DNA of 52,782 bases from Escherichia phage vB_EcoM_swi3: the sequence record MT768059.1; one strand, written 5' to 3'. Position numbers and translations under genes: made by a program. Of the stretch, positions 3,754-39,515 are shown piece by piece; position 1 is the first letter of the stretch; each line of letters begins with the position of its first letter. The notes below the pieces were generated by a model. It was not told the DNA's origin, did no database searches, and worked only from the letters and a program-made list of their open reading frames with translations.

Positions 3754-3953
3754 AATAGTTACCTTTGTACTAGTTTCCAGGTGTGACTACTGTTACCAAT
3801 AGTCACTAGTTGAAACTACTACTTGTGTTACTATCAACAAGAAACATGTTACCAAATTGTTAAAGAGCAAAAGGTACCATTGACATCTACCAGATGTACC
3901 TGTTGACTGGTTAAGTACTACCTACCTAATCTAAACCATACCAATATCCTTTA

Positions 3954-3970
3954 GACCAGTTAGACTGGTC
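3954..3970. promoter_or_regulatory. perfect palindrome GACCAGT-TAG-ACTGGTC (putative operator)
   Basis: 7-bp arms with 3-bp spacer read directly; half-site GACTGGT recurs at 3905..3911. Confidence 0.4.
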
Positions 3971-4138
3971 AATCAGTCATCACATTCAATAAATATATAA
4001 TAGACCAATCGCTATTGATTGTACATAAAAGAATTGCAAGTTTATGCAAGTTTTTAGAAATGATAATCACTTGCGATTGATAGTGGTTCTCATATACAAT
4101 TGATATAGTTTCACATGTAATTATTCAACTCAAAATGG

Positions 4139-4370
4139 TCGGCAGGGGTTATAATAACATAGGGGTGCCACTTAAAGGAGCCGGCGAAATTATTTCTAAA
4201 AATATAATTTCAATCTGAATTATAGACGCTTTGTACTATAACGGCCGAAGTAGTTCACACGGTAATTGTACCAATCATAATAGTTACCAGAGTAATCATT
4301 TCAATTGAAATAGGTGCGGCGGGGGGTAATTTCGCAGGGGTGCTACCTGCCAGGAGCCAGCGGAATTTTT
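4139..4370. repeat. two copies of a ~57-bp GC-rich element, period ~176 bp
   Basis: 4139..4196 and 4315..4370 share GyCGGCrGGGG ... AGGGGTGCyAC ... AGGAGCCrGCGrAATT; flanked by AT-rich DNA. Confidence 0.5.
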
Positions 4371-4588
4371 TTATTTTTTGGTATTTTCTCCTTATCAGGA
4401 CCAATCATCATCAGAGTGATACGACAGGAGCTAACCTTTTGCCTAACACAATAATAAGTGAAGCCCCTCTAAAATTTTTTTATATTTTTCGGAAATTGTG
4501 TAGACACTCACTAAAAAGTGGTGTACTTTCTCTCCTCCACGCGCTATCATTAATGTGAATCATCAAACGGCCTCACGGTCTCCTACTT

Positions 4589-5086
4589 GTGGGTAACATT
4601 ATGAAAATTGTTCAATTAGAGCCATATCCGCCTCAATTGGCTATCGTTTGCAGCGAAAAAGAGCACGAAGAGCTCCAAAAACTGATGGATTTGCCTGATT
4701 TTGGCAACTGGAATGACCGAGAAACACGTACTGCATCTACCTTTACGTTCTCTCGCGTTAATTATCCGTACCTGTTAATTGTCGTCGAACTGTACCACCC
4801 GGACGACCTGAAGTACAACACCATTTCCCACGAAGGCATTCACGTAATGTCGTCGCTGATGAACTATGTTGGCCTTAAATACGACCCAGAAAACGATGAA
4901 TGGTACGCATATCAGCATGATTTCATCGTAAATGCCATTTGTAAGGCCCATGACGAGTACATTGAGCGCCAAAAAACGCCAAAAACTAAGCCAAAAATCG
5001 AAACAGGTAACCATCCTGCAATACTGCCACAAGACGTTATGAACTCGCTTTTGACTGACACTACTGGGGACTTTTTAGGTGATTAA
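4589..5086 (+). CDS. hypothetical protein with HExxH motif (possible small zinc metallopeptidase)
   Basis: 165 aa; motif ISHEGIHV; first gene of rightward block. Confidence 0.4.
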   Translation: MGNIMKIVQLEPYPPQLAIVCSEKEHEELQKLMDLPDFGNWNDRETRTASTFTFSRVNYPYLLIVVELYHPDDLKYNTISHEGIHVMSSLMNYVGLKYDPENDEWYAYQHDFIVNAICKAHDEYIERQKTPKTKPKIETGNHPAILPQDVMNSLLTDTTGDFLGD

Positions 5087-7378: not shown

Positions 7379-7407
7379 TTTACTTACTTCGCGTAACTCG
7401 TTATAAT
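7379..7407 (+). promoter_or_regulatory. sigma70-like promoter TTTACT-N17-TATAAT(cc)
   Basis: Read directly; upstream of terminase small-subunit candidate. Confidence 0.5.
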
Positions 7408-7439
7408 CCCGACTATCCGGATTAACGAGGACGATACCC

Positions 7440-7730
7440 ATGGCAAAACCGAAAAAAACCCGTGAGGCAACAGAAGAGCTGTTGGCCACGATGCGACGTA
7501 TCCAACTGGACCCGTTGGAAGTTATGCAACGGGCTATCATACTTGCTGAACGTGAAGACGACTACAAAGCGATGATGGATGGTGCACTGGGCGTTATGCC
7601 GTACATGTATCCTAAACTGAAAGAATCCGTTGTCAAAGCAGACATCGACCAGAACCTGTCTGGTAATGGTGTCAACCTGAACATTACAATAGGCGACCAG
7701 AAAGTGGTAGATACTACTGGGGAAGAGTAA
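7440..7730 (+). CDS. putative terminase small subunit
   Basis: 96 aa, immediately upstream of terminase large subunit; position-based. Confidence 0.45.
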   Translation: MAKPKKTREATEELLATMRRIQLDPLEVMQRAIILAEREDDYKAMMDGALGVMPYMYPKLKESVVKADIDQNLSGNGVNLNITIGDQKVVDTTGEE

Positions 7731-10751: not shown

Positions 10752-10780
10752 TTTACTTTCGGTTTACCTGGCTATATAAT
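10752..10780 (+). promoter_or_regulatory. sigma70-like promoter TTTACT-N17-TATAAT(cc)
   Basis: Read directly; followed by long structured leader. Confidence 0.5.
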
Positions 10781-10923
10781 CCTTCATGTCAACCGCGCAA
10801 CAGCCGGCCACGAGAGTCTGCAGGGCTCAGTGGATTTCGGATGGCTGGCTGCGCGGTTTGACCCAAACCTGTTCGGAGCCCACTTGAGTGGATTGAGCCC
10901 CTCTCATATAGGATTGTAAAATT

Positions 10924-11637
10924 ATGGCACTTAAAACAGTTGTAACTGACCTTAACGAAGTTGATGAAGGCTTCCGTGGCCTGTATATCAAAGACGACGC
11001 GTCCGGTGCGTTTCGTTTGGATGTTGAACCAGACGAAAAAACGCTGAAAGAATTAGAAGACCTGCGCAAAGAAAAACAGCGTATGGAGCAGCACACCAAA
11101 AAACTTCTCGAAGAGAAGAAAAAAGAAGCTGAACGTGCTCGCCTCGCTGAAGAAGAACGCGCACGTCGTGAGCGTGATGTTGAATCTCTTGAGCGTTCAA
11201 TCAAAGAGAAGCATCAGGCTGAACTTGAACAGTATACCAGTCGTCAGGCACAGCTGCAAGCACAGCTGGAAGCGCAGATGGTTGATAACATCGCGTTGAA
11301 CCTGGCTAACCAACTCTCTGACACCCCGGCATTAATTATGCCACACATCAAGGCCCGACTGCGCGCTCAGGAAATTGATGGTAAGTGGCGTACTATCGTC
11401 GTGGATGTTATGGGTAACCCGACTGCTACAACGCCAGATGAGCTAGTGGAGCATATGCGCGCTGATAAGCAGTTTGCACCTCTTGTGCGTGGAACCAAGG
11501 CTGGCGGTGGCGGTGCCAACGGCGGCGGAGCTAATCCTGGTGGGAACGGCGGTGGCGAACAGCACACTTTCGGGGGCGGGGATGACCGCATAGCACGTGC
11601 TCGTGCTAAAATCCAAAACACACAATGGGGCAAATAA
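10924..11637 (+). CDS. putative scaffolding protein
   Basis: 237 aa, highly charged coiled-coil (EEKKKEAERARLAEEERARRERD), Gly-rich C-terminus; between portal and capsid. Confidence 0.5.
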   Translation: MALKTVVTDLNEVDEGFRGLYIKDDASGAFRLDVEPDEKTLKELEDLRKEKQRMEQHTKKLLEEKKKEAERARLAEEERARRERDVESLERSIKEKHQAELEQYTSRQAQLQAQLEAQMVDNIALNLANQLSDTPALIMPHIKARLRAQEIDGKWRTIVVDVMGNPTATTPDELVEHMRADKQFAPLVRGTKAGGGGANGGGANPGGNGGGEQHTFGGGDDRIARARAKIQNTQWGK

Positions 11638-12618: not shown

Positions 12619-12640
12619 CCCACAAACGGGACTAACAAAA

Positions 12641-12666
12641 GGCGAGCTGACGAGCTCGCCTTTTTT
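12641..12666 (+). terminator. rho-independent terminator
   Basis: GGCGAGCT-gacg-AGCTCGCC stem then TTTTTT. Confidence 0.7.
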
Positions 12667-12667
12667 A

Positions 12668-12696
12668 TTTACACGTATAAAGTTCTGGTATATAAT
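12668..12696 (+). promoter_or_regulatory. sigma70-like promoter TTTACA-N17-TATAAT
   Basis: Read directly after the capsid terminator. Confidence 0.55.
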
Positions 12697-12722: not shown

Positions 12723-13223
12723 ATGGCATACACACTTGTTGTGGAAGACGGTTCAATTGTTCCGGGTGCTAACTCGTATGTTAGCGCAGCAGAAGTTGAT
12801 GAATTTATCACTAACGAAGGTATTCTCATTCAACCAGGAACTGACCCGTACTACCAGGCTGCCAAAGCAGCTATCCGACTTGATAACCAGTTTAACTGGC
12901 TAGGTCGTAAGGTCAGCAAAACACAGAGTATGGCTTGGCCCCGTACTGGTCTCGGTGCATGCAATGTTGACATCGCGGAGTCTGTAATTCCGCGAGAAGT
13001 TAAGCTGGCACAGCTTTATATGATGGCCAGTGTATTGAGCTACGACGGTGAAGAAGGTGTGCGTAGCGACCAGGCTTTGCGCCGTAAGAAAGTTGGTAAC
13101 CTGGAGATTGAATACTTCGACTCCAAATCAGGCGTTACCGGTGCAACTGACCTTTGGACGTCAGACGTCAAGGCCATGCTCAAGCACCTTGTGGGTGCAT
13201 CCCTGAGAACGCGGAGAGTATAA
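12723..13223 (+). CDS. putative head-tail connector/head completion protein
   Basis: 166 aa; position after capsid gene. Confidence 0.4.
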   Translation: MAYTLVVEDGSIVPGANSYVSAAEVDEFITNEGILIQPGTDPYYQAAKAAIRLDNQFNWLGRKVSKTQSMAWPRTGLGACNVDIAESVIPREVKLAQLYMMASVLSYDGEEGVRSDQALRRKKVGNLEIEYFDSKSGVTGATDLWTSDVKAMLKHLVGASLRTRRV

Positions 13224-18125: not shown

Positions 18126-18154
18126 TTTACTTAACCGAGGCGCCAGCCTATAAT
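18126..18154 (+). promoter_or_regulatory. sigma70-like promoter TTTACT-N17-TATAAT flanked by inverted repeat
   Basis: GCGCCAGC (18141..18148) and GCTGGCGC (18157..18164) flank the -10. Confidence 0.5.
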
Positions 18155-18186
18155 AAGCTGGCGCACCCAATAAGAGGATTCTCCAG

Positions 18187-32353: not shown

Positions 32354-32390
32354 CTACCAGCAAGCTTGTGCAGTTGCTGGTAGTGTTTCT
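32354..32390 (+). terminator. rho-independent terminator
   Basis: CTACCAGCAA-(10 nt)-TTGCTGGTAG then T-rich tract. Confidence 0.6.
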
Positions 32391-32414
32391 TTTACGCTTG
32401 AGTCGTGCTATAAT
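32386..32414 (+). promoter_or_regulatory. sigma70-like promoter (TTTCTT-N17-TATAATcc) for lysis cassette
   Basis: Read directly. Confidence 0.45.
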
Positions 32415-32448: not shown

Positions 32449-32709
32449 ATGTTTGACTACAACGACAAGTCTTCCCTTATTGGCCAGTTTGTGGCTTGGG
32501 TAACAATAACAGTAAGTACTTTATCACTAAGTGATTGGGGTACTCTTATCGGTATACTCAGTTCCTTGGTGATGCTGATTGTTGTTACGTATAACCAAAC
32601 ACGGCGAACCAAAATTATGTCGGATTATTACAATCGTAAGAAGCCGATAGAGGATGAAGTCGCATCGAAAGAAGAGGTGTTGCGTGAGTCTGAAATCAGC
32701 AGCGACTAA
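32449..32709 (+). CDS. putative holin
   Basis: ~87 aa from ATG at 32449 with two hydrophobic segments and charged C-terminus; directly upstream of endolysin. Confidence 0.5.
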   Translation: MFDYNDKSSLIGQFVAWVTITVSTLSLSDWGTLIGILSSLVMLIVVTYNQTRRTKIMSDYYNRKKPIEDEVASKEEVLRESEISSD

Positions 32710-33537: not shown

Positions 33538-33739
33538 TAAACCTGAAGTTGTTTATGTTGACAGGGTAGTCAAGGTTTATCCGCCTGGTGCGTACCTGGT
33601 TAAATGCCATAAACCTGAATTAACAGGTAACACCTGGAAGGCAATAGGTCAGTTAGCTATTGAACGTGGAACAGCTCTTGATGATTGTGCAGACAAGATG
33701 GACAGCATAATTAACTGGAGTAACAAAGGGGCCGAGTGA
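33464..33739 (+). CDS. putative o-spanin (lipoprotein), overlapping i-spanin
   Basis: Signal-like MTKRQNMIRALIPLLLLPFLNSC with lipobox-like LNSC; starts in +1 frame inside i-spanin. Confidence 0.45.
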   Translation: MTKRQNMIRALIPLLLLPFLNSCADKPEVVYVDRVVKVYPPGAYLVKCHKPELTGNTWKAIGQLAIERGTALDDCADKMDSIINWSNKGAE

Positions 33740-33754
33740 TGGCCCCTTTATTTG
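33728..33754. terminator. rho-independent terminator between convergent blocks
   Basis: GGGGCC-gagtgat-GGCCCC then TTTATTT. Confidence 0.6.
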
Positions 33755-33755
33755 A

Positions 33756-34034
33756 TTAAGCCTGCAGGAAGCCTGGGAACATATCAGCGCGTAAAGCAGC
33801 GCCCTTCAGTAACCAGATTTGGTCTTTAGCCTGTGCAAGCGCATTGTCCTGAGCTACTTGTTTGCCGATGTCTGCATTGAACTCTGCAGGGTCAACACAA
33901 CCAGAAGTACCTACACCTAACTGGAAGCCATCCAGCGTTGCCACACATACAGTTACAGTTGTATTCGGTACCTGCCAGAAATGATACTCCAGTTTATCAA
34001 CAAGAGCATTAACTTCTTTAAAATCTACTTTCAT
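33756..34034 (-). CDS. hypothetical protein
   Basis: 92-aa ORF. Confidence 0.4.
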   Translation of the reverse strand: MKVDFKEVNALVDKLEYHFWQVPNTTVTVCVATLDGFQLGVGTSGCVDPAEFNADIGKQVAQDNALAQAKDQIWLLKGAALRADMFPGFLQA

Positions 34035-34258
34035 TATCGCTTTCCTTTCTTCTCGTTATACTGCGCGCAGGATGCACACAATACTGTACCGGGTAAGAGC
34101 TGACGTCGTTTCTCTTCAATGTCTTCCCCACACTGGTAGCACGTCAGCGGGCTTACGCCTGTGTATCTGACACGGTTCGACAGCGCTGCGTCCCGGGCAA
34201 CTTGCTCAGCTTCAGAAGCCATATCAGTAATGTCCGATGTGCGCATAGTCTCAATCAT
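34034..34258 (-). CDS. TraR/DksA-type C4 zinc-finger protein
   Basis: 74 aa; CxxC ... CxxC (CYQCGEDI ... CASCAQ). Confidence 0.55.
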   Translation of the reverse strand: MIETMRTSDITDMASEAEQVARDAALSNRVRYTGVSPLTCYQCGEDIEEKRRQLLPGTVLCASCAQYNEKKGKR

Positions 34259-39480: not shown

Positions 39481-39515
39481 AAATAAAAAGGACCAGCGTT
39501 AACTGGTCCTTTTGG
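39481..39515 (-). terminator. rho-independent terminator
   Basis: GGACCAG-cgttaa-CTGGTCC hairpin; minus strand reads TTTTTATTT after the stem. Confidence 0.6.

Follow-up and report, generated by a model that had tools for sequence, protein, structure and literature searches.

Conserved inverted repeats over internal sigma-70-type promoters of Escherichia phage vB_EcoM_swi3 are probably selected hairpins rather than operators

What is the role of inverted repeats that lie directly across the promoters of a phage structural operon? The question is raised by the DNA of Escherichia phage vB_EcoM_swi3 (MT768059.1; 52,782 nucleotides (nt), the whole of which is referred to as the window), in which a promoter-like sequence at 18126-18154 carries an inverted repeat of 8 base pairs (bp) around its -10 hexamer. 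A preliminary description had placed this site among at least 6 plus-strand promoters of structural genes (7379, 10752, 12668, 18126, 20992, and 32386) and suggested that host sigma-70 transcription of the late genes is gated by a repressor or activator binding to the palindromes. The window belongs to a Rosemountvirus myophage, such phages being lytic and roughly 52 kilobases (kb) in size, and the 6-kb segment around the site is 96-98% identical to those of about 40 Rosemountvirus genomes, including Salmonella phages LPSEYT and BP63 and Escherichia phage SD350. The phage group, comprising Rosemountvirus, Loughboroughvirus, and unclassified relatives, is widely isolated for use against Salmonella and E. 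coli, and the expression programme of Rosemountvirus and Loughboroughvirus is known from predictions only. Our answer, which as a whole we hold with evenly balanced confidence, is that the sites are internal host sigma-70 promoters with superimposed hairpins, that these hairpins are selected, most likely as RNA, and that they are not protein operators.

The strict consensus TTTACW-N17-TATAAT has 6 exact matches in the window versus 0.03 expected, and 0 of 100 shuffled sequences reach 6. Five of the matches are on the plus strand, each in the gap before a structural gene, and the sixth lies on the minus strand at 1492. Generic sigma-70 scans were barely enriched over shuffles (46 versus 32.6, 29 versus 27.7, and 20 versus 19.4), and among the promoter scans the strict TTTAC-type consensus alone stands out. 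Of the plus-strand sites, P1 (TTTACT-N17-TATAAT, 7379-7407, with the -35 at 7379-7384 and the -10 at 7402-7407) precedes the first packaging-module gene (ATG at 7440), and P2 (TTTACT-N17-TATAAT, 10752-10780) directly follows the portal stop codon, upstream of the scaffold and major-head genes. P3 (TTTACA-N17-TATAAT, 12668-12696) is located upstream of the head-tail adaptor gene (ATG at 12723), P4 (TTTACT-N17-TATAAT, 18126-18154, with the -10 at 18149-18154) upstream of an Ig-domain structural gene (ATG at 18187), and P5 (TTTACT-N17-TATAAT, 20992-21020) upstream of the tail sheath gene (ATG at 21053). These 5 sites match the sigma-70 hexamers at 10-11 of 12 positions with a spacing of 17 bp and fit the consensus that had been proposed for them, but 32386 does not: its first hexamer, TTTCTT (2 mismatches), is the T-tract of the preceding terminator hairpin (32354-32383) and not a -35. 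Despite this poor -35, the site carries an extended -10 with a preceding TG, TGCTATAAT (P6, plus strand, 32406-32414), upstream of the holin gene (ATG at 32449), and the block GTGCTATAATCCA is invariant in the 5 lineages compared below. All 6 sites are in intergenic gaps directly after a stop codon, and the distance from the end of the -10 to the start codon is 27-35 nt at 5 of them and 144 nt at 10752.

The 6 junctions were compared in 5 lineages, namely the window, Loughboroughvirus ZCSE2, SE1_KM, fHy-Eco03, and Erwinia phage SOI901, the structural regions of which share ~72-89% DNA identity with the window. All columns of the -10 hexamers (36/36, 100%) and 30 of the 36 columns of the -35 hexamers (83%) are invariant, including both hexamers of P1, and P2, P4, and P5 are likewise conserved; the corresponding values are 25% for the spacers and 21% for 20 upstream flank columns, and the spacer is always 17 bp long. 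As the hexamers are conserved while the spacers diverge, the promoters are under selection. In ZCSE2 (L002, 1051-1425) and fHy-Eco03 (L033, 12326-12694), a gene for an HNH endonuclease has been inserted exactly between the major-head terminator and P3, and P3 is intact downstream of the insert. We consider it very likely that the sites are functional sigma-70-type promoters, with start sites that are predicted here from the position of the -10. Transcription by the host sigma-70 polymerase, as originally proposed, gains support from the near-invariant hexamers and spacing as well as from the sibling phages: an RNA polymerase gene is not among the annotations of BP63, and the authors of the S144 paper found no phage RNA polymerase and presumed that the host enzyme is used (PMC7432712). 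Equivalents of 12668 and 18126 are annotated in the BP63 record (NC_031250) and equivalents of 12668, 18126, 20992, and 32386 in the S144 record (MT663719; PMC7432712), in both cases as pattern or PhagePromoter predictions only, so that the promoters as such are ordinary and already predicted in sibling records. The S144 record additionally annotates a promoter equivalent to 26901-26929 of the window (TTTACA-N17-TAAAAT), inside the baseplate-hub gene and ~180 nt before the next gene; this site is identical in all relatives, which is uninformative because it is coding sequence. The CC that was said to follow the -10 often does so at 3 of the 6 sites (7379, 10752, and 32386, i.e., P1, P2, and P6), where TATAAT-CC is kept in relatives.

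The inverted repeat at P4 forms an 8-bp GC-rich stem, GCGCCAGC/GCTGGCGC, at 18140-18164 on the plus strand (arms 18140-18147 and 18157-18164), with the -10 in the 9-nt loop and the predicted start (~18160-18162) within the 3' arm; the repeat is thus present as described, although it begins at 18140 and not at 18141. The hairpin folds at -16.8 kcal/mol (z = -4.0 versus shuffles). Because such fold energies do not by themselves reach significance, the repeats have to be judged by their conservation and covariation in relatives, which for P4 and P5 were assessed in structural alignments of 8 sequence variants against 500 shuffles. Searches of IMG/VR and metagenomes with the sheath protein added only 3 informative lineages (L008, L024, plus known genomes), and homologues at 33-51% identity have no such promoters. 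The arms at P4 change to GTGCCTGC/GCAGGCAC in the IMG/VR contig L008 and fHy-Eco03, to TGCCAGC/GCTGGCA in SE1_KM, and to AGCCAGT/GCTGGCT in the metagenome contig L024 and SOI901, with complementarity kept in each case. Overall, 93.8% of cells are paired, one position occurring as C:G, U:A, and A:U, another as A:U and U:A, and the closing pair as C:G and U.G; stem length is 8-11 bp. The covariation score is 0.295, compared to 0.10 in shuffles (reached by 0/500), with 2 pairs showing double changes, and pairing falls to 19-45% when the partner is slid by 1-3 columns. Among the lineages, the hairpin moves by one base relative to TATAAT while the 17-bp spacing is retained, which implies that hairpin and promoter are separately constrained.

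At P5, the motif GGCCATT/AATGGCC, reported as bracketing the promoter, is indeed found at 20987-20993 and 21018-21024 (one base off the reported start), but it is merely the outer part of a 17-bp hairpin with one bulged U and a 7-nt loop at 20985-21026 on the plus strand. The whole promoter is folded, the -35 being paired with the -10, and the predicted start (~21027) marks the end of the hairpin. The predicted fold energy is -21.6 kcal/mol (z = -5.3 versus shuffles). The spacer varies among relatives yet stays complementary (TTGGT/ACTGAG, CACAG/CTGTG, TTGGTAA/TTACTGGG, and others), and one outer pair is U.G, C:G, or U:A depending on the relative. Pairing amounts to 95.6% of cells, including 89% for the variable spacer columns. 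In RNA, the plus strand is more stable than the minus strand in 7 of the 8 variants, with one tie, by ~5 kcal/mol on average, a bias that is due to G.U pairs. As a candidate for an operator word shared among sites, TGGCCATTTAC, allowing up to 2 mismatches, occurs at chance level.

These patterns bear on the suggestion that a phage repressor or activator uses the palindromes as operators to time late transcription from the sigma-70-type promoters. In its favour, both repeats cover parts of the core promoter, so that a protein bound there would block or recruit the polymerase; they are conserved in relatives; and symmetric changes in 2 arms are also expected from a co-evolving dimeric binding protein, especially at P4, which has no RNA strand bias. 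The arms of P4 and P5 share the core words GCCAG/CTGGC, and many small early open reading frames (ORFs) have no assigned function. Nevertheless, P4 and P5 have no common half-site in the same orientation, and their centres lie at different positions relative to the promoter (~-9 versus ~-21). Palindromes are present at only 2 of the 6 promoters originally listed, and 3-4 of the 6 have no such site of any kind; GCGCCAGC has 5 matches in the window versus 1.5 expected, none of them at another promoter. The geometry is also unlike that of dimer operators, with 8-bp arms separated by a 9-nt gap and 17 bp centre to centre at P4, and 17-bp arms with a 7-nt loop at P5. Among the relatives, the arms change with complementarity kept, including G.U-type intermediates, and P5 displays the plus-strand bias. 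Of the many unassigned ORFs in the window, 20 small ones were scanned with Pfam, which revealed no helix-turn-helix regulator and no DNA-binding domain other than a DksA/TraR-type zinc finger, and near-consensus promoters generally need no activator. Consequently, gating by a palindrome-bound protein, as put forward in the preliminary description, is not supported, and we regard operators as quite improbable.

A third hairpin, not covered by the earlier observations, pairs the spacer and -10 region of P1 with the ribosome-binding site. It lies at 7397-7429 on the plus strand and consists of 2 parts, the left arm (7397-7412) comprising CTCGTTA and TAATCCCGA with the -10, and the right arm (7416-7429) comprising TCCGGATTA and TAACGAG. 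The loop is near the predicted start (~7412-7415), and the 3' arm holds the GAG of the Shine-Dalgarno sequence GAGG (7427-7430). The hairpin is kept in all 5 lineages with arms that differ in sequence and length (-14 to -23 kcal/mol), reaching 12-13 bp including G.U pairs in SE1_KM and SOI901, and its plus-strand RNA is more stable than the minus strand in 4 of 5 variants. By contrast, no hairpin lies over P2, P3, or P6. Taken together, the conserved and covarying pairing indicates that the inverted repeats are probably selected secondary structures rather than operators.

Such structures might act in DNA, where cruciform extrusion under negative supercoiling or an altered spacer geometry would render P4 and P5 sensitive to topology. 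The P4 stem is fully Watson-Crick, with both strands equally stable as DNA (-10.8 and -10.9 kcal/mol); the -10 is located in the loop at P4 and within an arm at P1 and P5, so that extrusion would affect its recognition directly; and small spacer palindromes recur at other promoters. Cruciforms need both strands to pair, and the strand bias at P5, a signature of a structure in the sense-strand RNA, argues against them: the G.T pairs of P5 and P1 become A.C mismatches on the other strand, and at P5 the minus-strand fold is weaker by the margin given above. Furthermore, the 9-nt loop makes extrusion costly at P4, the predicted energies of the DNA hairpins are modest (-6 to -13 kcal/mol), and the centre of the repeats is not constant relative to the start. 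We therefore consider an action in DNA highly unlikely.

It could also be that the repeats have no function of their own, being by-products of promoter self-complementarity and GC-rich filler that are kept by shared ancestry, and several observations weigh in this direction or against selected RNA hairpins. The complementarity at P5 is partly intrinsic, as ATTTAC is complementary to GTA(T)AAT and GGCC to itself, and the covariation score of P5 (0.200 versus 0.156) is only modestly above that of shuffles (28/500). About 10% of the window, taken in 50-nt windows, folds at -17.5 kcal/mol or better, which for 2 of 6 promoters gives p ~0.11. Only ~5 of the lineages are independent, and variation is absent from most stem pairs, with 10/17 at P5 and 4/8 at P4 being invariant. 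P4 has no consistent strand asymmetry, a DNA- or protein-level role being equally compatible there, and the hairpins of P4 and P5 have no U-tract and leave the predicted accessibility of the ribosome site unchanged. A literature search returned no published transcriptome, start-site, or 3'-end mapping for Rosemountvirus or Loughboroughvirus. On the other hand, P4 has undergone 3 independent double substitutions, all of which preserve pairing, with no disruptive change in 7 core pairs, while the flanks and the loop, except for TATAAT, diverged. At P5, the variable spacer columns have largely remained paired, whereas the spacers of other promoters show no such complementarity. An absence of function is, in our view, most improbable, and secondary structure under selection remains the preferred explanation.

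How could these hairpins act? As the 5' arms at P1, P4, and P5 are upstream of the predicted starts, the complete hairpin is expected only in read-through RNA: a transcript initiated at the embedded promoter would be without the hairpin, and one reading in from the upstream unit would contain all of it. What is new is thus the nesting of 3 late promoters in conserved, covarying hairpins whose formation is expected in read-through RNA only. At P1, read-through RNA would be translationally masked at the first packaging gene and RNA initiated at P1 would be translatable. At P4 and P5, the hairpin would follow the upstream stop codon and end at the start site, leaving the ribosome site free; the hairpins end 23-27 nt before the AUG. 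Here, they would most likely be intercistronic 3'-end or stability elements at the spot that is held by canonical terminators before P3 and P6, forced onto the promoter because the gaps are just 67 and 86 nt long. That the hairpins act at the level of RNA, and that those of P4 and P5 affect stability, is our best guess, reached indirectly, and the specific roles proposed for P1, P4, and P5 are possible but tentative.

Three other roles for P4 and P5 were discarded. Masking of the ribosome site was rejected, as the predicted accessibility of the Shine-Dalgarno sequence does not differ meaningfully between read-through and promoter-initiated RNA (0.57 versus 0.42 at P4 and 0.60 versus 0.63 at P5). 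The hairpins are not canonical intrinsic terminators either: in the window, the bases following the hairpin are ACCCAAUAAG at P4 and GAAAGUCCAC at P5, without a U-tract, the relatives likewise have no T-run, and the terminator scan did not list them. Finally, cleavage by RNase III needs ~20 bp of near-continuous double-stranded RNA, compared to stems of 8-11 bp at P4 and a bulged 17 bp at P5.

The consensus itself is not restricted to the structural-gene promoters, as the minus-strand match at 1492 shows. A TTTAC-type -35 with TATAAT also heads non-structural units on the plus strand (122, 4522, and 49602) and on the minus strand (1520, 39459, 40624, 42587, 44629, 45806, 47321, 48923, and 49568). 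Most non-structural promoters have an A-tract (AAAAGTG-like) abutting the -35, often a TGn extended -10, and AT-rich discriminators. The sites noted as forming this class are 4522 on the plus strand and all of the minus-strand sites above except 49568. In comparison with a set of other promoters chosen by the analyst from consensus matches, P1 to P6 do not have the AAAAGTG A-tract found at 9 of the others (p = 0.005), and their discriminators are richer in GC (median 4/7 versus 2/7; Mann-Whitney p = 0.003). Several middle or non-structural promoters carry a hairpin of 5-7 bp within the spacer that ends at the -10 (ACCAC...GTGGT), and these hairpins covary in ZCSE2, where ACCAC/GTGGT becomes ATCAC/GTGAT and ACGCCAT/GTGGCGT becomes ACGCCGC/GTGGCGT; the covarying spacer hairpins fit the same idea of a constraint on space.

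The class difference invites an account of late timing in which the palindromes are irrelevant and the flanks of the late promoters alter the response to polymerase availability or to a DksA/TraR-like protein. A C at the second base after the -10 and a GC-rich discriminator reduce the lifetime of the open complex and confer sensitivity to DksA/TraR, and the late promoters have GC-richer discriminators, no A-tract, and the conserved TATAAT-CC of P1, P2, and P6. However, promoters with such features are inhibited by DksA/TraR, the opposite of what late activation would require. A candidate regulator is encoded at 34034-34258 on the minus strand, a DksA/TraR-type C4 zinc-finger protein of 74 amino acids (Pfam PF01258, E = 3.5e-10) that is the sole transcription-factor-like domain among the 20 small ORFs scanned, and the authors of the S144 paper proposed the DksA/TraR-like protein as a late regulator (PMC7432712). 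Kinetic timing also leaves the covariation of the stems unexplained and leans on comparison promoters picked by the analyst, and as a replacement for selected hairpins we judge it unlikely. The discriminators and A-tracts together with the DksA/TraR-like protein could, however, provide a separate, non-exclusive route of timing. The ORF adjoining that of the zinc-finger protein (33756-34034) encodes a protein of the N4 Gp49/Sf6 gp66 family.

At the junctions whose promoters are not nested in hairpins, other RNA features are predicted. An intrinsic terminator after the major head gene (12637-12667, plus strand) has a T-tract that runs into the -35 of P3, and its stem covaries in ZCSE2, SE1_KM, and SOI901. 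A second terminator (32354-32393, plus strand), with the stem CTACCAGCAA/TTGCTGGTAG and a T-tract, follows the tail-fibre assembly genes before P6, and its stem covaries in relatives. A terminator-promoter fusion like those at P3 and P6 is also seen on the minus strand, where the terminator at 39486-39513 runs into a TTTACC-N17-TATAAT promoter (39459-39431). The 144-nt leader of P2 contains a long hairpin of ~76 nt (10787-10862, plus strand) and then a second stem that ends ~15 nt before the ATG at 10924. The leader (10781-10923) is nearly invariant across lineages, with a consensus fold of -47 kcal/mol over 5 sequences, and conservation does not extend to a 33-codon ORF that is annotated within it in one relative. 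The leader may serve the scaffold and major-head operon as a cis-regulatory RNA; no part of the window, P2 leader included, matched an Rfam family at gathering thresholds. Upstream of P1, TAGAC repeats (YTSTAGACW) considered as an activator site were rejected, since they are not enriched (4 versus 4.0 expected).

Elsewhere in the window, a GC-rich hairpin flanked by A- and T-runs (33725-33749) separates the convergent lysis and replication blocks, and its BP63 equivalent is annotated as a bidirectional terminator. Between divergent operons, a non-coding region of ~800 bp (3760-4600) contains several long-range inverted and direct repeats and, by eye, 2 similar GC-rich elements (AGGGGTGC..AGGAGCC.GCG.AATTTTT) near 4143-4195 and 4318-4380. 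The 3.7-kb direct terminal repeat of fHy-Eco03 ends at about the equivalent of this region, so that the region may represent the boundary of a terminal repeat or an origin.

The promoters divide the structural block into about 6 units headed by near-consensus host promoters, 2 of which are fused to terminators, yielding a testable transcription map. If the nested design is real, its consequences would be that read-through RNA is translationally masked at P1 and, at P4 and P5, has a defined 3' end or an altered stability. Hairpins acting in this way would provide a compact means to separate read-through from locally initiated RNA, of use for understanding late-gene control in phages that encode neither a polymerase nor a sigma factor and for the design of insulated synthetic operons; otherwise, what remains is a set of ordinary phage promoters. 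More speculatively, promoter-nested hairpins might be a general design of the group by which an RNA "knows" its start, with the structural genes controlled, in timing and in amount, after transcription and without a late-specific sigma factor, activator, or repressor, although we think this generalization rather doubtful.

Among the closest known counterparts are the orthologous promoters predicted in BP63 and S144. Neither "hairpin" nor "stem-loop" occurs in the text of the S144 paper (PMC7432712), the feature tables of BP63 and S144 contain no such feature, and we have not seen the covariation and the promoter class differences described for these phages. With promoters of the lacUV5 type, 5 of the sites share a TTTAC(A/T) -35, a perfect TATAAT, and near-optimal spacing, whereas 32406-32414 represents a TGnTATAAT subclass. 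The lacUV5 promoter, TTTACA-N18-TATAAT, is a near-consensus promoter that needs no upstream activator; unlike it, the promoters of the window are internal to a phage structural operon, their spacing is fixed at 17 bp, and 3 of them are nested in hairpins. Horwitz and Loeb (1988) reportedly engineered promoters that are controlled by supercoil-induced cruciform extrusion over the -10. The palindrome of P4 is similarly centred on or near the -10, although the sites described here are natural and the G.T pairs of P5 and P1 weaken the hairpin on the opposite strand. As GC-rich hairpins directly after a stop codon in a polycistronic unit, P4 and P5 also resemble terminators and intercistronic stabiliser hairpins, examples of which are REP-type 3' barriers and the logic of lambda sib/tI, but in contrast to canonical terminators they have no U-tract, their stems are too short for RNase III, and they overlap a promoter. 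In the fold-back inhibition of IS10 and IS50, an inverted repeat in read-through transcripts masks translation of the transposase. IS200 combines sequestration of the Shine-Dalgarno sequence with an end terminator against impinging transcription (PMC4513863). The repeat of P1 is comparable to those of IS10 and IS50 in that, judging from the sequence and predicted starts, it straddles the start, places both arms in outside transcripts only, and has the Shine-Dalgarno sequence in its 3' arm; it differs in belonging to a phage late operon rather than a transposase gene, and the hairpins of P4 and P5 differ further in that they exclude the ribosome site.

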